Assembly: GCA_965198225.1 (NCBI GenBank)
Contig: CBDAOY010000008.1
Location: forward strand, 544,001-608,000
DNA from: Terriglobia bacterium
GTDB taxonomy: Bacteria > Acidobacteriota > Terriglobia > 20CM-2-55-15
Direction: 5' to 3'
DNA length: 64,000 bases
Shown: positions 13,652-31,253 of the stretch, one piece after another
Position numbering within the stretch: position 1 is the first letter of the stretch
Layout of the letters: each line of letters opens with the position of its first letter
Position numbers and translations under genes: made by a program
Notes under the pieces: generated by a model
What the model saw: only the letters and a program-made list of their open reading frames with translations
What the model was told of the DNA's origin: nothing
Database searches by the model: none

Positions 13652-14216
13652 GGACCGCCAACGTCTGAAGATCCTTGCGATACTGCTGGCTGCGCTGGCC
13701 TCGACTCTGTGGATCGGCGAGCAGATCAACCCGACTCCGGGGGCAGCCACAGCTCAGACGCCCGGCTCGGTCCCGACCCCTCCGGTTCCCACGACCGGCC
13801 TGGCCGAGATTGAGGTTGGGGGAAGCTGGATGATTGCCCCTGGGGAAGGCGCAGGGGATCCGGTGCGAAGGAATCCTTTTGAATACGGCCCCGAGCCGCC
13901 GCCCGTCCCGGAAACCCCACTGCCGGGTGAACCCGCCGGGGCTTCCCCTGAGGCCGCGCTATCGCCGGCTCCACCAGCCGAACCCCCGCCCCCGCCTCCT
14001 CCGCCGATTCCGTTCAAGTACAACGGCTATGCCGTCATCGACGGCGAGCAGGGGAAAATTCGCGCGTTCCTTTTTGAGGAAGACAAGTTGTTCTCGGTGT
14101 CGGAAAATGAGGTGCTGATGGGCCGCTACCGTGTCAACCAGGTCACTGAAACCTTCGTCGAGGTCGAGGATCTCGAATTCGGACGCCGTCAACGGCTCCC
14201 GCTCATCGTCCAATGA
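13641..14216 (+). CDS. Proline-rich PilP/GspC-like protein
   Basis: RNPF motif, poly-Pro linker, C-terminal beta domain; operon position. Confidence 0.6.
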   Translation: MMGKDRQRLKILAILLAALASTLWIGEQINPTPGAATAQTPGSVPTPPVPTTGLAEIEVGGSWMIAPGEGAGDPVRRNPFEYGPEPPPVPETPLPGEPAGASPEAALSPAPPAEPPPPPPPPIPFKYNGYAVIDGEQGKIRAFLFEEDKLFSVSENEVLMGRYRVNQVTETFVEVEDLEFGRRQRLPLIVQ

Positions 14217-15415
14217 CGAACGACCGCGGGTTCTCGCTCGCCGCCCTGATGATCTTCATGATGGCCCTGTCCATCTTCATGGCGGCAGCCGTGCCGGCAT
14301 ACCAGATGCAGGCGCAGCGTGAACAGGAAGAAGAGCTGATATTCCGCGGCCAGGAGTATGTGCGTGCAATCCAGAAATACCAGCGGCGCTTCGGCATCTA
14401 TCCCCCGAGTATCGACGCCTTGATGGAGACAAACGGCCTCCGTTTCCTCAGGCGCGAGTACACGGATCCGATCACCGGGGAGGCGTTCCGCCTTTTGACG
14501 ATTAACCCCGATGGCAGCATCAACGGTTCGACTCTCTACCAACAACGCGTCGGTAACGCGCCGCTGTTTCAAGGCGGGACACCGCAAATGTTCGGACAAC
14601 CCGGGTTCGGTCAGGGAGGTGCGGCCGAACAGCAGGGCGGGGGACAACGCGGAGGTCCCGGCCAGGGCTCTCAGGGTCGTGGCGGCGGAGGGCAGGGCTT
14701 AACGGGTGGTTTCGGTGGCGCTCAGCCGGGTCCGGGCGGTCTGGGTGGATTTGGCGGCCAGGCTTTCGGCGGCGGCCGCGGTGGCGGTTCCGGACAACAA
14801 CCGGGGTTCGGTGCGCCCACTCCCCAGGGCACGTTCGAAACAGGATCGTTCACCGGCCGGGGCCAGTCGCAAGGCGTGGGCACCCCAGGTGGTGCCGGAC
14901 AGCAGCAGGGCTTCGGGCCTCCCGGTGGGTTCGGACAACGCGGAGGCGGGAGCAGCCAGGGCAGGGGCCAGCAGGGCCGCGGTGGCCGACAGTCCGGCGG
15001 TGGCCGGCAGGCTCTCGGCGGATCAGGCCAGCAGGGTGTTGCCGGCGGCGCAGGGTTCGGGCAACAGCAGGCTGGTTTCGGGGGAGGGCAGCAGGCAACG
15101 GCGAGTTCTGGAATCGTCGGCGTGGCGCCCGAGAGCGAAGATCCATCGCTGAAGGCCTACAACAATCGGGAGAAGTACAACGAGTGGGAGTTCATCGCGA
15201 TGCCTGGCTTCGGGACCGTTCCTGCACCTCCCACCGGCCAGGGTCAGGGCGCCCCGACAGGTCAACCCAACCAGTTCCAGCAGAATCAGGCATCGCCGTT
15301 TTCAGGTACCCAGCCCAACCCGTTCCCGGGGGGGCCTACGAGGCCACAGCCCCCTGCCGGCACTCGACCCGGTGTACCCAGTCCCGGGCAGACCCGCCCG
15401 CCCGGTCCCTGGTAG
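14213..15415 (+). CDS. Minor pilin/pseudopilin-like protein with a long Gly/Gln/Phe low-complexity insert
   Basis: RG|FSLAALMI class III signal lacking Glu5; EEELIFRGQEY, YTDPITG and YNEWEF conserved blocks flank the insert. Confidence 0.75.
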   Translation: MTNDRGFSLAALMIFMMALSIFMAAAVPAYQMQAQREQEEELIFRGQEYVRAIQKYQRRFGIYPPSIDALMETNGLRFLRREYTDPITGEAFRLLTINPDGSINGSTLYQQRVGNAPLFQGGTPQMFGQPGFGQGGAAEQQGGGQRGGPGQGSQGRGGGGQGLTGGFGGAQPGPGGLGGFGGQAFGGGRGGGSGQQPGFGAPTPQGTFETGSFTGRGQSQGVGTPGGAGQQQGFGPPGGFGQRGGGSSQGRGQQGRGGRQSGGGRQALGGSGQQGVAGGAGFGQQQAGFGGGQQATASSGIVGVAPESEDPSLKAYNNREKYNEWEFIAMPGFGTVPAPPTGQGQGAPTGQPNQFQQNQASPFSGTQPNPFPGGPTRPQPPAGTRPGVPSPGQTRPPGPW

Positions 15416-15487: not shown

Positions 15488-16357
15488 TCAACCGACTTTC
15501 ACCGCATTCGTCTTGGGGATAACCTTGTGCCCGTGCCGTTCGGCATAGATGTGGGTGAATTCCCCGCCCAGCAGCAGAATCGAGGTCGAGAAGTAGACCC
15601 AGATCAGGACGACCAGCAGCGACCCTGCCGCTCCGTACACCGACTCGATCGCGCTCGTTCCCAGGTACAGGCTGAAAAGGTATTTTCCACCCGCGAAGAA
15701 GACCGACGTCACGAGTGCGCCGACCCAGACGTCGCTCCAGGCGACTCTTGCGTCGGGAAGAAACTTGTAGACCAGCGCGAACAACACGGTTACCACCGCG
15801 GCGGAGATGGCCAGATCGACGTAGTGCCAGATGAAAGCGACCCCGGGGACCAAACGGTTTACGTAAACGCTGTAGGCCCGGATGAACGTGCTCAAGAGCA
15901 GGGAGGCCAGCAGGATGACGCTGACGACCATGACCATGCTGAAAGGCCAGAAGCGGTCGCGAAGAATTCCGACAATCCCGCGACCAGGCTTCGCCTCGAC
16001 TCTCCACACCTTGTTCATCGCAGCGAGCAACTGCGCAAACACGGCTGAGGCGCCGATCAGCATGGTCGTCATACCGACCACGGTGGCGATGCGGCCCCCT
16101 CCAACGCGCTCGGTCGTGCTCGACAGCGCGCGCGCAATCAGGACCGCCGCATCGTCGCCGACATAGTTGCTGATCTGACTCTGGATCTGGACGGTTGTGT
16201 CGCCGCTGTAGATCAGGCTGATGAGGGCGACCACGATCAGTAGGCCGGGTGCCATTGAGAAAGCCGCGTAGAAGGCGATTGCGGCACTCATCTGGAAGGC
16301 GCCGTCGTCGATCCAGCGGTAGAACGATTCCTTGAGCAGGTCCCAGACGGCGCCCAT
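15488..16357 (-). CDS. YihY/BrkB family membrane protein
   Basis: SAAIAFY, YKFLP, YGAAGSL..VLIWVY..ILLLGGE. Confidence 0.92.
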   Translation of the reverse strand: MGAVWDLLKESFYRWIDDGAFQMSAAIAFYAAFSMAPGLLIVVALISLIYSGDTTVQIQSQISNYVGDDAAVLIARALSSTTERVGGGRIATVVGMTTMLIGASAVFAQLLAAMNKVWRVEAKPGRGIVGILRDRFWPFSMVMVVSVILLASLLLSTFIRAYSVYVNRLVPGVAFIWHYVDLAISAAVVTVLFALVYKFLPDARVAWSDVWVGALVTSVFFAGGKYLFSLYLGTSAIESVYGAAGSLLVVLIWVYFSTSILLLGGEFTHIYAERHGHKVIPKTNAVKVG

Positions 16358-16496
16358 CAGAACCCGTACCCCGATTCGCCCGACAGGAGTCGATAGCCTA
16401 CGCGAAGCAGAGCCAGCATGGCCGTATCTTACTCCAGAACGCGTCTGCGCATTTTCGGTGTTTACACCGTTGACTCATTCTGTTACCAAGACGGCC

Positions 16497-17264
16497 ATGA
16501 CCTTCGAGACGATTAAACTCCAACTCGATTCGCGCACCGCCAGGATCGTTCTGTGCCGACCTCCGCTGAATGTGATTAACATTCCGATGATGGAGGAGAT
16601 CGATCGAGCATGGACTGCCATCGAGGAGAGTCCTGCGAATCTGGTCGTCCTGTCCGGTGCCGGTGGAAAGGGTTTTTCGGCCGGAGTCGACATCGCCGAC
16701 CATGCTCCCGCCCGCGTTCAGGAGATGCTGGAACGCTTCCATCATGTCATCCGAAGGATCTACTATTCGGCTCGCATCAGCATCGCGGCCATCCACGGGC
16801 ACACGCTGGGCGGGGCCGCCGAGCTGGCGATGGCCTGTGATTTCGTTGTCGCTGCCGCCGACCTCCATCTCGCATGTCCGGAAATCGACGTCGGTTGCTA
16901 TCCGCCCGTAGCCGCGACCGTGCTGCCCGAAATCGTCGGGATGCACCGCGCGTCTGAGTTCGTACTGCTCGGCCGAGCGGCGTCCGCTGAAGAAGCGAAG
17001 GCGATGGGGCTCGTCAACCTCGTAGCGCCGGCAAGTGAGCTCAACACTGCCGTCGATGAGTGGTTGAGCCTTCTCCTGAAAAAGAGCGCGGCTGTCCTGG
17101 GTATAGCGAAAGCGGCCCTACGCGAGGGTGGGGGCGCGGACTTCGACCTGCGTTTGAAACGGATCGAGGACTTGTACCTGCAGAAGCTCGCCGAGACAGC
17201 CGACATGGCGGAGGGCATCGAGGCCTTTTTGGAGAAGCGGCCTCCGGAGTGGAAGCACCGGTAG
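16497..17264 (+). CDS. Enoyl-CoA hydratase/isomerase (dienoyl-CoA hydratase-like)
   Basis: RPPLNVI, FSAGVDIADH, PEIDVGCYPP, EGIEAFLEKR. Confidence 0.88.
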   Translation: MTFETIKLQLDSRTARIVLCRPPLNVINIPMMEEIDRAWTAIEESPANLVVLSGAGGKGFSAGVDIADHAPARVQEMLERFHHVIRRIYYSARISIAAIHGHTLGGAAELAMACDFVVAAADLHLACPEIDVGCYPPVAATVLPEIVGMHRASEFVLLGRAASAEEAKAMGLVNLVAPASELNTAVDEWLSLLLKKSAAVLGIAKAALREGGGADFDLRLKRIEDLYLQKLAETADMAEGIEAFLEKRPPEWKHR

Positions 17265-17342: not shown

Positions 17343-17394
17343 TTTTCTGCTTAGTCAACACCCGGGGACAGGGCCAGGCCCCTGTCCCCCTCAC
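17343..17394. repeat. REP family A, copy 2 (inverted)
   Basis: Reverse complement of the 427-485 element; lies between convergent genes. Confidence 0.9.
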
Positions 17395-17433: not shown

Positions 17434-17895
17434 CTACAGCGCTTCCAGGACCTCTTCGAAGTGGCCGTCTACCTTGACGTTGGGAAAGATTTTAGAGATC
17501 TTGCCGTCTTCGTCGATGATGAAAGTGGAGCGTGCGATCCCGAGCCTTTTCTTTCCGTACACGTTCTTTTCCCGGAGTGCGCCGTACTTGTCGATAATCT
17601 TCTTTTCCGGGTCTGACAACAGCGGAAAATTCAGTTCGTACTTCTCTTTGAATCTCTCGTGAGACGCGACGCTGTCACCGCTCATACCGAACACGACCGC
17701 ACCGCGCTTCGTGAGCTTTTGCATTCCGTCCCGGAACGCGATCGCCTCTCGAGTTCAGCCGGGTGTGCTGTCTTTCGGGTAGAAGAACAGCACGACCTTC
17801 TTGCCTTTGAGATCCGACAGCCTGACGTTTTCTCCGCCATCGGCTTCGACTGTGAAATCCGGCGCCATCTGTCCAACCTTCAGCTCGTTTGCCAT
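17434..17895 (-). CDS. bcp: Selenocysteine-containing peroxiredoxin (BCP/PrxQ), 153 aa, Sec47
   Basis: ATG 17895 with GGAGG RBS gives [14 protein letters not shown]...[12 protein letters not shown](17757-17755)-TREAIAFRD..., in frame with the 17724-17434 ORF; TGA is at the peroxidatic Cys position. Confidence 0.9.
17721..17739 (-). promoter_or_regulatory. Bacterial SECIS-like hairpin
   Basis: GCGUUCCG-GGA-CGGAAUGC stem-loop starting 16 nt 3' of the UGA. Confidence 0.65.
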
Positions 17896-18014
17896 GAGCG
17901 AATCCTCCAGGAGACCCATACCACAGAATCAAGGCAGAGATTATATAATCAACCGCCCGGACCAGGACTTCCTGTCCGACGCAATCATCAGACGTCTTAA
18001 AAGAGGAATCAAGA

Positions 18015-18788
18015 ATGGACTACCGGAACGTCAAGTTCGAAGCCGAGGGCATCGCGTTTCTCACCATCAATCGGCCCGAGAAGCGAAACGCCTTGAATCA
18101 GGCGACACGCGACGAAATCCTCCACGTCCTCGACAACATCCAGGAGTCCGCAGCACGGGTTCTGATCATCACCGGCGAGGGTGAGAAAGCGTTCATCGCG
18201 GGCGCCGACATCAGCGAATTCGAGGGAAGAACGGCATTGGATCAGCGCGACGTGATGAAGCAGCGCCGTATCTTCGACGCGATCGAAGAGTGTCCGTTGC
18301 CTGTGATCGCCATGATCAACGGTTTCTGTCTCGGCGGCGGCATGGAAGTCGCGCTGGCGTGTGACATCCGCATCGCGAGCTCTAACGCAAGACTCGGCCA
18401 ACCCGAAATCAATCTCGGGATCATCCCTGGCGGCGGTGGGACCCAACGCCTGACGCGACTCGTCGGGGAAGGCAAGAGCATGGAGCTGATCCTGACCGGC
18501 GACATCATCGACGCTGGAATAGCCTACGACCTCGGTCTGGTAAACCATGTCGTTCCGCAAGAAGAACTCCACGACTTCACGTTCGGGCTGGCGAGTCGCA
18601 TGGCCGACAAGAGCCCCGTGGCGCTGGGCCTGGCCAAGGAATCGATCAAGAATGCTGGACGGATGGGAGTCCGTGAGGCGATGGAACGGGAGACGGACCT
18701 GTTCTGTCTGGCGTTTACGAGCGACGACAAACGGGAAGGCGTTTCCGCATTCATGGACAAGCGGAAGGCCGACTTCAAGGGGCGCTAG
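18015..18788 (+). CDS. Enoyl-CoA hydratase (crotonase)
   Basis: NRPEKRNALN, AFIAGADI, GGGMEVALACD, QPEINLGIIPGGGGTQRL. Confidence 0.95.
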   Translation: MDYRNVKFEAEGIAFLTINRPEKRNALNQATRDEILHVLDNIQESAARVLIITGEGEKAFIAGADISEFEGRTALDQRDVMKQRRIFDAIEECPLPVIAMINGFCLGGGMEVALACDIRIASSNARLGQPEINLGIIPGGGGTQRLTRLVGEGKSMELILTGDIIDAGIAYDLGLVNHVVPQEELHDFTFGLASRMADKSPVALGLAKESIKNAGRMGVREAMERETDLFCLAFTSDDKREGVSAFMDKRKADFKGR

Positions 18789-20014: not shown

Positions 20015-20872
20015 ATGAATGTGAAAACGATTGCTGTTATCGGTGCGGGAATCATGGGGCGGGGGATCGCACATGTAGCAGCTCTCGGCGGCTTCGATCC
20101 AATTCTGAACGATGTCTCCGCCGAGCTTCTTGAATCGGCCCGGAGCCGAATCGGACGGGACATGCAGAAGGGCGTCGATCGGGGCAAATTGGGGGCGGAA
20201 GCCATGCGCGCGGGTCTGGATCGCTTGAGGACCTCGACCGACTTGGCGGAATCAGCCGCGGAAGCCGACCTCGTTATCGAAGCTGTTCCGGAAAAGATCG
20301 ACCTGAAGATGGATCTCTTCGGGCGCCTCGACAAGGCCGCCCCGGACCACGCCGTCCTCGCTACGAACACTTCCGGTTTGAGCATCACGGAAATGGCGGC
20401 AGCGACCGAGCGTCCGGAGAGAGTCATCGGCATGCACTTCTTCAACCCTGTTCATAAGATGAAACTCGTCGAAATCATACGGGGCCTGGAAACCGATGAC
20501 GACACCCTCACGACCGTCGAAGCCGTGTCGAGAAAGATGGGTAAGGAAACGGTCGAGATCAACGAATCGCCTGGGTTTGTGACATCGCGAATCAACGCCT
20601 TGATCGGGAACGAAGCGTTCTACATGCTACAGGCTGGCGTCGGCAGCGCTCGCGACATCGACAAGGCATTGAAGCTGGGCCTGAATCACCCGATGGGACC
20701 GTTTGAGATGATCGACCTGGTCGGATTGGACACGCGCTTGAGCATACTGAATTTCCTACACCAGACGCTGGGCGAGAAGTATCGTCCCTGCCCGTTGCTT
20801 GTGAAGTACGTAAAGGCCGGCCGCTTCGGACGGAAGGTCGGCAAGGGCGTCTACGAGTATCCGGACGACTGA
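20015..20872 (+). CDS. 3-hydroxyacyl(butyryl)-CoA dehydrogenase
   Basis: GAGIMGRGIA, EAVPE, GMHFFNP, HPMGP. Confidence 0.95.
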   Translation: MNVKTIAVIGAGIMGRGIAHVAALGGFDPILNDVSAELLESARSRIGRDMQKGVDRGKLGAEAMRAGLDRLRTSTDLAESAAEADLVIEAVPEKIDLKMDLFGRLDKAAPDHAVLATNTSGLSITEMAAATERPERVIGMHFFNPVHKMKLVEIIRGLETDDDTLTTVEAVSRKMGKETVEINESPGFVTSRINALIGNEAFYMLQAGVGSARDIDKALKLGLNHPMGPFEMIDLVGLDTRLSILNFLHQTLGEKYRPCPLLVKYVKAGRFGRKVGKGVYEYPDD

Positions 20873-25971: not shown

Positions 25972-26850
25972 TTACTTCATCGCCGTCTGGATTGCCTCTT
26001 CCAAGACTTCCGCTTCCTGGAAGTTGACGAAGTGTTTCACCACGACGCCGTTGGCGTCCACGAAAAACATCGTGGGGAACACGTTAACGCCGCCGTAGGC
26101 ATTCTGCATCTGCTGGTTCAAGTAGGCTGTCGTGAACTCGATGCCCAGATTCTGGACATACTCGGCCCGCATCGTGTCGTCGTAGGGGAGTTCCAGGACG
26201 CGATCCGCGTTGGCGGCGACGATCTCGAACCCGGAGCCGGCGTACTTGGCATGCAATTCGACAAGAAGTGGTGAGGTCTTGACACAGGGCGGGCAGTTGG
26301 TGAACCAGATGTAGACCAAGTGAGGCTTTCCGGCTACGTCCTGGGATGTCACCGCGCTGCCGTCGTAGTGTTCGATCGAGAACTGCGGAATCGGGTTGCC
26401 TTCCCATCCGGCAATCGTCCTCTCGATCAACCGCCCGAACTGCGGGTGTGCGCGAACCGGCTCTACGTCGATGCTCGTGATTTCACCGGTCGCGGGGTCG
26501 CGCTCGAAGAAGCGGGGGACCCTGGGATCCGACTCCATGATCCGCAGGATCACGTCCGCTTCGCCTTCAACGTTGAAATTGAACTGCTCGGAGATTTCCT
26601 GCAGCGTCGGGATTTCGCCGGTACTCGTGTTGTATTGCACGAGGAACAGCGGGATCTTGAAGAAAGTATTGTAGAGAGCGCTGAGCACCTGCTGCTCTTC
26701 CGGCGTCGTGAAGACCTCGTTCGCCAGGTCGGAGACGACCACAGGCTGCCCCGGTTGCACGTTTTCCCGGAGGTATTCAATGATTCGGGTCTCGGTGTTC
26801 GGCTGTTGGAACAACAGGGCCATCAAGGCCGCTCCTAGCCATGTTTTCAT
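25972..26850 (-). CDS. TlpA-like redoxin with an N-terminal extra domain
   Basis: WFTNCPPC, FPTMFFVD. Confidence 0.85.
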   Translation of the reverse strand: MKTWLGAALMALLFQQPNTETRIIEYLRENVQPGQPVVVSDLANEVFTTPEEQQVLSALYNTFFKIPLFLVQYNTSTGEIPTLQEISEQFNFNVEGEADVILRIMESDPRVPRFFERDPATGEITSIDVEPVRAHPQFGRLIERTIAGWEGNPIPQFSIEHYDGSAVTSQDVAGKPHLVYIWFTNCPPCVKTSPLLVELHAKYAGSGFEIVAANADRVLELPYDDTMRAEYVQNLGIEFTTAYLNQQMQNAYGGVNVFPTMFFVDANGVVVKHFVNFQEAEVLEEAIQTAMK

Positions 26851-27316: not shown

Positions 27317-29356
27317 CTACCGATTCCGCGTCAGCCGAATCGGTCGGTTCTGTCCCATCAGGTTGTTCTCGAACAGAGCATTGGTGGCTTCCAACGCAAC
27401 GCGCATCGAAGAGGGGCGCCAGCGGTGCCAACCGTGCGGCTCGCCGTCGAAGACACGGTAGTCAAACCACTTGCCCTGGGCCTCGGCCTGGACGGCGAAC
27501 TGTTCGATTTGCTGGAACGGAGCCGTCGGATCGCTACCTCCGTAGAGGAAGATGATCGGCGTTCTCAATGTGTCGACGAAGTTCGTCAAAGAACGTTCGT
27601 AGAAAGGGAGGGGGGCTACGATCGGCGTCGAGCCGATCATGTAACGGGTCCAGGCGGCCATTGTGGGGTAGGAGGAAGCCGTCACGAGATCGATCACGCC
27701 CTGAAGGGAGACTGCCGCGACGAACCGGCTCTCGTCGCGGATGAGAGCCGCGCTCACGAGAAAACCACCGGTTCCCGAACCGAAGATCGCAACCCGCTCA
27801 GAATCGATCAGCCCTTCGCCCGCCAGCCGGTCCAGGCCAATGAAAGCGTCGCGTACGTCCATTTCTCCGCCTTTACCGAAGATGGCCTGTCGATAGTCTT
27901 TGCCCCGTCCACTCGAACCCCGCACGTTGGGCGAGAAGACCAGGTATCCCTCGCTCACGAGGGACTGGACGAACGGGTTCCATGCGACAGCGCTCTGGCC
28001 TTCGAGTGTGTCCCTGAAGACCAGGATCGCAGGATGCCGCGTGTTTGCGGTTGCACCTCTTGGCCGGTAGACCAGCGCAGAAATCTCCTCGCCGTCGAAG
28101 GTTGGGTACACGAATTCCTCAGGAGTTACGAATCGAGACTCTCTTTGGAGTTCGAGCGGCATCGAGTTTGTCAGTGGGCTGGATCGACCTCCGGTCGCGT
28201 TGGCGACCCAGACATCGGATGCTTTCGTGGGACTCGAGTGGGTAAAAGTGATCAACCGGCCGTCGGGTGACCACGCCAAGTGGCCGTGCGGGCTGGAATC
28301 TTTCCGGTCAAAACCGCCGTTGGTCCCCGGTCTGTCTGAAACCCGGACCGGGCTGCCGCCACCAGACGGGACCCGCCAGATCTGAAACTCGAGCCCGTCA
28401 TTCTGCACGTAGGCGATCGTCGATCCGTCGGGGGACCACTGGGGGGTCAACTGATCGACCTCGATATCGCTCAACGGCGTCCGCCCTCCGCTTTCGACAT
28501 CGATTACGTAGAGGTTGCTGTAACCGTTCTGTTCAGACGCGATCGCCAGCTTCGAAGAATCCGGAGACCAGGACGGCGCGTAGTCACGGTAGCGTTGCGT
28601 CCCTGGTGTCAGCAGTCGCGCCGGACCGCCCGACGTCGAAACGACGAAAATGTCCTCGTTGTCGCGACGGTTGTCGTTCGGTAGCGGATCGGACACGAAC
28701 GCGAGCCACGCACCATCAGGGGACCATTGTGGATCCGAGGCCGGCGTTTCGGTCGGGCGTTCGACCAGGCCCGAGTCGATGTCCACGACCGCCAGTTGGG
28801 CCAGTCCCGCAGAGTCGGAGGTGAAAGCGAGTCGTCTGCCGTCGGGAGACCACCGCGGTTCGCGTTCGTCGCTCGGTGAACGGGCAAACACCGCCGATTC
28901 CCCGCCCGCCGGTCTCACGCCGTAAATGTCTCCCCTGCCCCCCGGCAGTTCGGCAACGTAGGCAATCCACTCCCCGTCGGGAGACCACTGCGGGTCGGAC
29001 TTTGGCAGGGTGTCGGAGGTGATCCGCCTGGGCGCGCTGGCGTCTGAATCGACGATCCATATTTCCGACGCGCCGCCCTGTGCGGAAACGAAGGCGAGTT
29101 CCGACACGTCTGGAGACCAGGTAAATTCATAGACGCCTGTCGCCCTGGACAGGGCCTCTGGACTCAGGGGGATGCGAGCTTCCTGTGTGAGTAGCATGCT
29201 GACCCCGAAAGAAGCTGCAAAGATGATGGCGATAAAGACAAGACGAGGCAGGAAGTCCCCCTTCAAGCCTCCGATTCTGAAGTTCTCAGCCACAACCGGG
29301 TCCCCTCCGAAACATTCTACTCGAATCTGCGCGTCGTCCACCCCCTCCCCTCCCAC
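27317..29356 (-). CDS. S9 peptidase-like protein with a PD40/TolB beta-propeller; nucleophile motif degenerate (start uncertain)
   Basis: Multiple WSPDG repeats, PNVRGSSGRG, FGSGTGG in place of GxSxGG, GEPHG. Confidence 0.85.
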   Translation of the reverse strand: MGGEGVDDAQIRVECFGGDPVVAENFRIGGLKGDFLPRLVFIAIIFAASFGVSMLLTQEARIPLSPEALSRATGVYEFTWSPDVSELAFVSAQGGASEIWIVDSDASAPRRITSDTLPKSDPQWSPDGEWIAYVAELPGGRGDIYGVRPAGGESAVFARSPSDEREPRWSPDGRRLAFTSDSAGLAQLAVVDIDSGLVERPTETPASDPQWSPDGAWLAFVSDPLPNDNRRDNEDIFVVSTSGGPARLLTPGTQRYRDYAPSWSPDSSKLAIASEQNGYSNLYVIDVESGGRTPLSDIEVDQLTPQWSPDGSTIAYVQNDGLEFQIWRVPSGGGSPVRVSDRPGTNGGFDRKDSSPHGHLAWSPDGRLITFTHSSPTKASDVWVANATGGRSSPLTNSMPLELQRESRFVTPEEFVYPTFDGEEISALVYRPRGATANTRHPAILVFRDTLEGQSAVAWNPFVQSLVSEGYLVFSPNVRGSSGRGKDYRQAIFGKGGEMDVRDAFIGLDRLAGEGLIDSERVAIFGSGTGGFLVSAALIRDESRFVAAVSLQGVIDLVTASSYPTMAAWTRYMIGSTPIVAPLPFYERSLTNFVDTLRTPIIFLYGGSDPTAPFQQIEQFAVQAEAQGKWFDYRVFDGEPHGWHRWRPSSMRVALEATNALFENNLMGQNRPIRLTRNR

Positions 29357-29866: not shown

Positions 29867-29964
29867 TGGCGGAAGTGCGTGGGAGTCGAACCCACCGAAC
29901 GCCGGTTCCCCGACGTCCCACTGGCTTTGAAGGCCAGGAGAGTCACCGGACCCTACTCACTCCC
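29867..29964 (-). tRNA. selC: tRNA-Sec (anticodon UCA)
   Basis: 98 nt; 6-bp D stem with 4-nt loop, CTGGC-CTTCAAA-GCCAG anticodon arm, long variable arm, GTGGG-TTCGACT-CCCAC T arm, G discriminator plus CCA; TATAAT just upstream. Confidence 0.95.
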
Positions 29965-30191
29965 GCAACCGATTATAGACGAGCGATACCCGATGAGGGC
30001 GACATTATAGCCCGAATCAGCGCGCCGTGGCGGCTATCGCGGTAACGTCGAAAAGGCTGTCCTCCAGAACATTCTTTTCCCTATAATCACGTCACTTCAG
30101 AGAACGAACGCTGTAGAAATGGACCTTGGGTTCCCGGGGACCGGCTGGCCGGGTCCCGGAAGCCGGCATTGGATTTGCCAAAGGAGTGCTT

Positions 30192-31253
30192 ATGAGCGAC
30201 TTGAACCGACGCGGCTTCATTAAGTCCGCGATGGCCGCCTCGGTGGCGGGGACGCTGGGCCCGTTCGATGCGGCCGCCCAATCCTTGTCGGAAGCACGTC
30301 CGCCGAGGCCGATCGCCATCTCGAGCGCAAACGGTACGCGAGCCATCGACCGGGCCATGGAAATGATGCGCCAGGGGGAAGACACTCTGGACGCCGTGGT
30401 GGCGGGCGTGAACATCGTCGAGGACGATCCCAACGATCGAAGTGTTGGCTACGGAGGCTTACCCAACGAGGACGGTGTCGTCGAACTCGACTCCTGCGTC
30501 ATGCATGGGCCATCGAATGGCGCCGGCGCCGTGGCATCCATCCGGAACATCAAGAATCCGTCCTCGGTCGCCAAGGTCGTGATGGAGCGCACCGACCATG
30601 TCCTGCTCGTCGGTGAAGGGGCACTGCGGTTCGCCAGAGCTCACGGGTTCGAGGAAGTGAACCTGCTCACTGATGAGTCCCGGGAGCGCTGGCTCCGGTG
30701 GAAGGAAAACCTGAGCGACCGTGACGATTGGATTCCCCCATCGGAAGGTTCCGGCAACGCCTTGATGTACGACTCCGAACGCGTCTACGGCACGATCAAC
30801 TGCAACGCAGTCAACGAGCGGGGTGAAGTCTCCGGCGTCACGACCACGAGCGGGCTGTCGTTCAAGATACCCGGTCGTGTCGGCGATTCCCCCATCTTCG
30901 GCGCAGGTCTGTACGTCGATGGAGCGGTCGGAGCATGCGGATCGACGGGCCGGGGCGAAGCGAACCTGACCACGTGCGCTAGCTTCCTTGCAGTCGACAG
31001 CATGCGTCGGGGAATGTCCCCCGAGCAAGCCGGGCTGGAAGCATGCAAGCGGATTGCGGAGAAGACAACGAGTCCGCGCCTCCTCAACGATGACGGGCAT
31101 CCGAATTTCAACGTCAACTTCTATGTCGTCAACAAGCGGGGGGAGTACGCGGGCGCGTCGATCTGGAGCGGCAGCCGGTTCGCGGTGCACGACGGCAACG
31201 AGTCTTCCATCAAGCAGTGCGCCTATCTGTTTGAAAGGCCCCCGCGAGGCTGA
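30192..31253 (+). CDS. N4-(beta-N-acetylglucosaminyl)-L-asparaginase family Ntn hydrolase, Tat-exported
   Basis: NRRGFIK Tat signal, SVGYGGLP, G|TIN nucleophile, GRVGDSP. Confidence 0.92.
   Translation: MSDLNRRGFIKSAMAASVAGTLGPFDAAAQSLSEARPPRPIAISSANGTRAIDRAMEMMRQGEDTLDAVVAGVNIVEDDPNDRSVGYGGLPNEDGVVELDSCVMHGPSNGAGAVASIRNIKNPSSVAKVVMERTDHVLLVGEGALRFARAHGFEEVNLLTDESRERWLRWKENLSDRDDWIPPSEGSGNALMYDSERVYGTINCNAVNERGEVSGVTTTSGLSFKIPGRVGDSPIFGAGLYVDGAVGACGSTGRGEANLTTCASFLAVDSMRRGMSPEQAGLEACKRIAEKTTSPRLLNDDGHPNFNVNFYVVNKRGEYAGASIWSGSRFAVHDGNESSIKQCAYLFERPPRG

Follow-up and report, generated by a model that had tools for sequence, protein, structure and literature searches.

A probable selenocysteine-containing, cysteine-free peroxiredoxin of the PrxQ/BCP type encoded across an in-frame TGA in a Terriglobia bacterium

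The region analysed here (hereafter, the window) is a stretch of 64,000 nucleotides from a Terriglobia bacterium. Its minus strand carries a gene for a putative selenocysteine (Sec) peroxiredoxin, which is isolated on its strand, with a crotonase-family gene to either side. The reading frame runs from an ATG at 17893-17895 to a TAG at 17434-17436 and contains a single in-frame TGA, at codon 47. When this codon is translated as Sec (U), the product comprises 153 residues, of which U is number 47 (surrounding sequence: [14 protein letters not shown]), and presents no Cys apart from the placeholder written for U. The elements of the locus are the following:

17434..17895, minus strand: predicted Sec-BCP (PrxQ/BCP peroxiredoxin) gene; 153 codons followed by TAG, translated with TGA as U
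17755..17757, minus strand: predicted peroxidatic Sec codon (in-frame TGA, codon 47), aligned with the Cys of homologs and with TGA in other BCP genes
17740..17742, minus strand: codon 52, ATC (Ile), at the usual resolving-Cys position (+5)
17764..17778, minus strand: Pro40 to Thr44 of the PxxxTxxU active-site motif, invariant in the alignment
17530..17532, minus strand: codon for Arg122, the conserved active-site arginine; an invariant column, aligned with solved BCPs
17904..17908, minus strand: GGAGG ribosome-binding site, visible in the sequence itself 8 nt ahead of the start codon
17721..17739, minus strand: SECIS-like hairpin found by folding; 8-bp stem (one G-U pair) and 3-nt GGA loop
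29867..29964, minus strand: tRNA-Sec gene (selC), anticodon TCA, from ARAGORN and Rfam RF01852

Under the standard genetic code, the list of open reading frames contains only two pieces of this gene, a 96-aa tail (17434..17724, minus strand) and a 54-aa head (17755..17919, minus strand); the sequence-only reading had reported the tail alone. Its proposal that translation from the ATG at 17895, behind a GGAGG ribosome-binding site, yields a full 153-aa BCP was borne out by the location of that site and by a Pfam match extending across the TGA, and the alignment with homologs favoured this start over an in-frame ATG at 17919. Since TGA acts as an ordinary stop in 11 of the 33 family-supported ORFs of the window, a genome-wide reassignment of this codon is excluded. 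The search for other TGA-bridged ORFs with redox-like contexts in the window returned 264 candidates, mostly noise, among which the BCP gene alone stood out. A scan for promoters and terminators near the gene detected nothing convincing on the minus strand, the matches being one weak -35/-10 pair inside the gene and two terminator-like sites on the plus strand. By eye, a GC-rich stem-loop (10-bp stem, 6-nt loop) lacking a T-run can be seen about 45 nt past the BCP stop codon (17364-17389, minus strand); it is absent from the output of the terminator scan.

The predicted protein belongs to a well-defined peroxiredoxin subfamily. The Pfam AhpC-TSA domain (PF00578) matched residues 7-135 without a break at the TGA (E 1.8e-43), and the NCBIfam Bcp equivalog model NF006960 was matched with 149.1 bits, against a cut-off of 140, together with NF053650 (161 bits). 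Two other candidate families were rejected, with scores far below their cut-offs: PrxU (NF040737; 63.6 bits against 270) and Prx-SUH (NF045827; 33.8 bits against 298). Pro40 and Thr44 are present in all of the 120 nearest homologs and, like the Arg122 column, are invariant in the multiple alignment, where Arg122 matches the arginine of the solved structures 5enu and 5iph (Xanthomonas BCP). These residues correspond to the peroxiredoxin active-site motif and arginine described in PMC5302317 and PMC8945050. The AlphaFold model, for which 12 sequences were aligned (pLDDT 92, pTM 0.87), places residue 47 at the start of a helix spanning residues 45-63, and superposes on solved BCPs with TM scores of 0.91-0.94, among them 9a4d_B, 5enu and Xanthomonas PrxQ. 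The best solved relative by sequence is 5enu, from Burkholderia ambifaria (E 5.8e-43, 48% identity, TM 0.93). The protein hence combines a Pxxx(T/S)xxC-type motif (P40, T44, U47), a distant arginine (R122) and a BCP-type fold, and both the sequence matches and the model identify it as a PrxQ/BCP-type peroxiredoxin. Residue 107 (codon 17575-17577) is Leu in the window protein versus Trp in all 11 aligned homologs, a point against a functional enzyme.

The TGA had been said to fall exactly at the peroxidatic position, and the alignment bears this out, with Cys occupying column 47 in 120 of the 120 nearest database proteins (59-70% identity). The counterpart of this Cys/Sec pairing was sought at the DNA level in a GTDB set containing one genome per species, scanning for sequences encoding F-Y-P-x-D-x-T-P-G-TGA-T. 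At least 121 matches in at least 118 loci were obtained, which, after removal of two duplicates arising from the overlapping loci L042 and L043, represent at least 119 distinct BCP genes; fewer than one match would be expected by chance, according to a back-of-envelope estimate. Among the matches listed, 113 of 119 genes continue without a stop for 90 codons or more past the TGA or, for L081-L118, as far as the 300-nt flank reaches. The six exceptions among these matches are L014 and L112, which sit at contig ends, L034, L046, L066 and L033, the last of which is not BCP-like and is probably a chance match. Judging by record titles, the listed matches are spread over Acidobacteriota, Binatia, Geobacter, Syntrophobacter and other deltaproteobacteria, Chloroflexota, Eremiobacterota/Vulcanimicrobiota, Gemmatimonadota, Planctomycetota, Actinomycetota, Bacillota, Myxococcota, Poribacteria and others.

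Two kinds of arrangement were observed within this set. On some contigs from deltaproteobacteria and Binatia, such as L003 (at 5001 and 9083) and L042/L043, two Sec-BCP paralogs lie roughly 4 kb from each other, and each has TGA as its peroxidatic codon. In the Planctomycetota loci L019 and L037, the frame remains open for 637-646 codons past the TGA, for total reads of 726 and 778 aa, which points to fusion of the Sec-BCP domain with an extended C-terminal region.

The Sec forms closest to the window protein among the matches listed come from L051 (Terriglobia; 67% identity) and from L080 and L085 (Acidobacteria; 63-64%). The flanks of L051 and L080 match those of the window, sharing a secretion/pilus block, YihY, a quinone oxidoreductase, an SDR and a small conserved ORF, and sequence comparison identifies their BCP genes as positional orthologs of the window gene with the same TGA and hairpin. 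Three genes close to the window BCP, namely the two flanking crotonase-family genes and a nearby 3-hydroxyacyl-CoA dehydrogenase (16332-17264, 18015-18788 and 20015-20872), have no tblastx counterpart in syntenic L051 and L080 (E up to 1e-8), and may constitute an insertion of fatty-acid oxidation genes into the conserved block. The type II secretion/pilus block ends with a 400-aa ORF (14213-15415, plus strand) that matches no family; its N-terminus is hydrophobic, and a very long low-complexity stretch rich in Gly, Gln and Pro comes next.

These comparisons bear directly on the possibility that codon 47 arose by nonsense mutation of a normal Cys-BCP gene, or results from an error made in sequencing or assembly, in which case no full-length protein would be produced. 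A single base change suffices to turn TGC or TGT into TGA, gene callers output the gene only as fragments, and the nearest database protein (P0002, 70% identity) pairs a peroxidatic Cys, its single Cys overall, with Ile at +5, all of which would be in line with such an origin. The sequence-only reading had itself named, among the observations that would speak against a selenoprotein, a loss of conservation downstream of the TGA and orthologs that never carry TGA at this codon. Instead, the frame past the TGA is intact, the domain match is continuous and all conserved residues, including R122, are kept, and TGA occupies the equivalent codon in the syntenic genes of L051 and L080 and in at least 119 genes elsewhere.

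The SECIS-like hairpin provides further evidence on this question. It had been reported to begin 16 nt downstream of the TGA, and folding located its 8-bp stem at that position (17721-17739), with 15 nt between the TGA and the stem and 23 nt between the TGA and the loop. In a 71-nt fold the region is no better than its shuffles (z 0.32; 123 of 200 shuffles fold as well), a lack of significance compatible with a mutated or erroneous codon, and the 42-nt segment from +6 to +48 after the UGA reaches -14.2 kcal/mol (z -1.65). Taken alone, the hairpin is weak evidence. Across 120 genes (the window gene and the at least 119 listed), the +6..+48 segment shows a mean z of -1.26, versus -0.49, -0.03 and -0.40 for three control segments of the same genes. 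We also set rough criteria in the manner of bSECISearch, requiring a stem of at least 4 bp, a loop of 3-14 nt with G in its first two bases and a loop located 16-37 nt from the UGA. Among the matches listed plus the window gene, 84 of 120 genes, the window's included, passed these criteria and 36 failed; the criteria are permissive, since 13-35% of control sites also pass (24/119, 15/119 and 41/118 at the control offsets).

The loop of the window hairpin lies farther from the UGA (23 nt) than in most genes listed (16, 17 or 21 nt), in a register common to the window, L051, L080 and L085. In that same register, Armatimonas L058 can form eight of the eight pairs with an entirely different sequence; this is an ungapped count, the MAFFT alignment having gapped L058 out of register. 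At positions encoding the same residue as the window gene, codons under the hairpin are identical in 6/6 cases for L051, 5/6 for L080 and 5/6 for L085, against 46/96, 50/91 and 49/88, respectively, outside the hairpin. This conservation of synonymous sites, and the presence of the hairpin with the same TGA in syntenic L051 and L080, argue against a mutation or error in an ordinary Cys-BCP gene. An Rfam E-value scan of positions 17650-17800 returned only chance-level matches to unrelated families (E up to 10). Upstream of the UGA, the 42 nt from -48 to -6 (17763-17805, minus strand) fold at -15.7 kcal/mol (z -4.3 against 30 shuffles), and the corresponding region is mildly structured across the at least 119 genes (mean z -0.49).

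The decoding of UGA as Sec requires a dedicated tRNA, and the selC gene that the sequence-only reading had placed 12 kb away was recovered at 29867-29964 (minus strand) by both ARAGORN, with anticodon TCA, and Rfam, where RF01852 scored 72.9 bits (gathering score 47; E 5.2e-13). It lies 11,972 nt from the BCP start codon and is the sole match at gathering level in the whole window. With a tRNA-Sec gene added to the intact frame, the recurrent TGA and the synonymous-site conservation at the hairpin, we consider a mutation or error at codon 47 to be highly improbable. The tRNA-Sec gene stands by itself between a TolB-like/S9 peptidase ORF (27317-29356) and an isoaspartyl-peptidase-like ORF (30126-31253), and an ORF for a TlpA/ResA-like thiol-disulfide oxidoreductase (25972-26850, minus strand) is found 3 kb from it.

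The surroundings of the tRNA gene also raise the possibility of a relic, in which the lineage once decoded Sec and is now devoid of a working SelA/SelB/SelD set, leaving the BCP gene silent or truncated. None of selA, selB and selD was found among the 53 ORFs of the 64-kb window, and the tRNA-Sec gene is isolated between unrelated genes; sel genes are often dispersed in genomes, which counts against reading their absence here as a loss. The tRNA-Sec score is far above the Rfam cut-off and no decay is apparent in the BCP gene, both of which argue against a relic. Losses of selenoproteins and of the Sec trait are frequent in bacteria (PMC1794560), but Sec-using Acidobacteriota are on record (PMC12013277), and a relic appears most unlikely. 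Overall, the sequence data and the structural model indicate that this is very likely a functional selenoprotein gene, encoding a PrxQ/BCP with a peroxidatic Sec that would be reset by an external reductant. The original proposal of a Sec-containing, cysteine-free BCP is thus supported by the Cys/Sec pairing, the syntenic orthologs with TGA, the tRNA-Sec gene, a SECIS-like hairpin of fitting type and location and the BCP fold.

The predicted protein also lacks a resolving cysteine. As had been claimed, the usual resolving position is occupied by Ile (Ile52, ATC), and the only C in the translated protein stands in for U. Cys is found at +5 in 117 of the 120 nearest Cys forms, the nearest of all (P0002) having Ile, as noted above. 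Among the Sec forms listed, the +5 residue is Cys in 54 of 119 and another residue in 65, including Ser in 23, Arg in 16, Lys in six and Ile in two (L080 and L085). The domain is wholly devoid of Cys in 35 of the 119 listed Sec forms, so the cysteine-free state is common in Sec-BCPs. The window protein has a resolving Cys neither at +5 nor in alpha3, the feature that defines atypical 2-Cys BCPs, and Ile52 together with the absence of any Cys therefore groups it with the 1-Cys-type BCPs. In a tree of 58 sequences, it falls within an 18-member clade (support 96/87) that mixes forms with C..C, C..I, C..M, U..C and U..I at the two positions, a pattern that fits the repeated Cys-to-Sec conversions reported for peroxiredoxins (PMC1794560).

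On this basis, and by homology with characterized BCPs and the known bacterial Sec pathway, a catalytic cycle can be proposed. SelB carrying Sec-tRNA(Sec) would bind the hairpin 15-33 nt behind UGA47, leading to the reading of UGA as Sec. The Sec47 selenolate, located at the start of alpha2 and presumably activated by Thr44 and Arg122, would then attack the hydroperoxide and be converted to a selenenic acid. With Ile at +5 and no Cys in the protein, no internal selenenylsulfide can form, and an outside reductant would have to act on the oxidised selenium directly; that an external thiol or selenol does the recycling, as the sequence-only reading had it, thus follows logically from the cysteine-free sequence, as an inference.

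Candidate reductants are thioredoxin, or a low-molecular-weight thiol together with a glutaredoxin-like protein, as in 1-Cys BCPs. Many BCPs lack a resolving Cys, and the sulfenic acid of the Burkholderia 1-Cys BCP, as described for B. cenocepacia, is reportedly reduced by Trx or, more efficiently, by GSH/Grx (PMC8945050, citing Clarke et al. 2009, 2010). Engineered Sec forms of MsrB2 and MsrB3 without a resolving Cys are not reducible by thioredoxin (PMC1278935), so direct reduction of a Cys-free Sec enzyme by Trx is not assured. In glutathione peroxidases (GPx), Sec forms use a small thiol and Cys forms with a resolving Cys use thioredoxin (PMC10298544). Because of the MsrB and GPx precedents, we favour, with low confidence and by analogy, a small thiol as the reductant, with or without a glutaredoxin-like protein.

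The neighbourhood of the gene was searched for a dedicated partner. No redoxin gene linked to the BCP gene was found in the window, and none is recurrent in 79 related loci; likewise, Pfam searches with nine cluster representatives of the neighbours in these loci detected no thioredoxin or glutaredoxin. No neighbour family recurs beyond lineage synteny in the 79 loci, the largest real family being present in seven. The largest neighbour cluster (45 loci) was rejected as an artefact, consisting of an antisense shadow ORF of the BCP gene. In seven of the 79 loci (L026:2609-3985 and six others), a protein combining DinB_2 and FGE-sulfatase domains, an architecture like that of EgtB/OvoA, is encoded some 1.4 kb away from the Sec-BCP gene and in the same orientation; in all seven loci the Sec-BCP is of the type with Cys at +5. 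This association could point to involvement of a cofactor of the thiol- or selenol-histidine kind, or simply reflect synteny.

The same data speak to a different role for a genuine selenoprotein, acting mainly as a peroxide sensor or redox relay that passes the Se-OH oxidation to the thiol of a target protein. Since the enzyme has no residue of its own to resolve it, the selenenic acid has to react with a second molecule, and relay roles for peroxiredoxins are discussed in PMC8113037 and PMC10298544. Against such a role, the window shows no linked gene for a partner or regulator of the BCP, none recurs in the 79 related loci, and the active site is of the standard BCP peroxidase type. We regard a primary function in sensing or relay as very unlikely, and favour the interpretation of the protein as a peroxidase reset by an external reductant.

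The predicted protein can be placed among several known systems. Sec-peroxiredoxins were listed in 2006 as a family (PF00578, TxxU) with 12 members and five Cys-to-Sec events, in a survey that already counted Acidobacteria among Sec users (PMC1794560); the family, as TxxU/PxxxTxxU, also appears in a table and the text of a 2026 review (PMC13188914), and a Sec-using Acidobacteriota genome was included in a 2025 benchmark (PMC12013277). The window BCP shares the Pfam family, the TxxU motif and the peroxidatic Sec with these proteins and, as far as the family is described there, presents no essential difference, being an Acidobacteriota-like member without the +5 Cys. The Burkholderia 1-Cys BCP (5enu, B. 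ambifaria) likewise lacks a resolving Cys in alpha2, with Leu at +5 in place of Ile, but it employs a peroxidatic Cys without UGA recoding, whereas the window BCP would have Sec inserted via UGA. The atypical 2-Cys BCP/PrxQ proteins (E. coli BCP, Xanthomonas PrxQ and Deinococcus PrxQ) share its fold and active site, with a TM score of 0.91 between the window model and Xanthomonas PrxQ, but form an internal disulfide with a resolving Cys (at +5 in alpha2, or in alpha3) that the window protein does not possess. PrxU of Eubacterium acidaminophilum, a Sec peroxiredoxin reportedly backed by experimental evidence from Sohling et al. in 2001 (cited in PMC13188914), belongs to a different subfamily, as reflected in the score of the window protein against its model (63.6 bits versus 270).

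The frequencies at the +5 position raise the question of whether peroxidatic selenium is associated with loss of the resolving Cys. Cys occupies +5 in 54 of the 119 Sec forms listed, compared with 96 of 115 cluster representatives of motif-matched Cys forms (Fisher p 1e-9), a comparison in which the Cys-form set is biased towards relatives of the query and the rows of both sets are non-independent events. Once the listed Sec set is limited to the similarity range of the Cys set, the contrast is reduced to 22/32 versus 96/115 (p 0.08), and it should be viewed as a lead, not a result. Selenium GPx enzymes, which lack a resolving Cys and use a small thiol, offer an analogy only, being a different protein family; the listed Sec-BCPs lean similarly, a leaning that is not significant (p 0.08) once the sets are matched for similarity to the query. 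We accordingly entertain, as a speculative and rather improbable proposition, that in BCPs peroxidatic Se may accompany the loss of the resolving Cys, with Sec-BCPs then tending towards a GPx-like one-residue cycle and, as part of the same proposition, towards a small-molecule or dedicated reductant instead of a thioredoxin-disulfide cycle. If true, the Acidobacteriota clade of the window protein would show this transition in progress. In the openly accessible literature covered, we found no discussion of the resolving Cys in Sec-peroxiredoxins and no paper linking Sec with its loss, which is weak evidence of absence.

Both the Sec-BCP kind and the 1-Cys BCP mechanism are already present in the literature and the cysteine-free form is common; the two points that follow will come as no surprise to specialists. 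The relevance of the protein lies in part in its detection: standard gene callers split or truncate the window gene and many of its relatives, and a widespread antioxidant selenoenzyme is consequently under-counted in soil and sediment phyla. In addition, a naturally cysteine-free Sec-peroxiredoxin would provide a clean system in which to ask what reduces protein selenenic acid in bacteria, and would be equally suited to the question of whether selenium makes the resolving cysteine dispensable.
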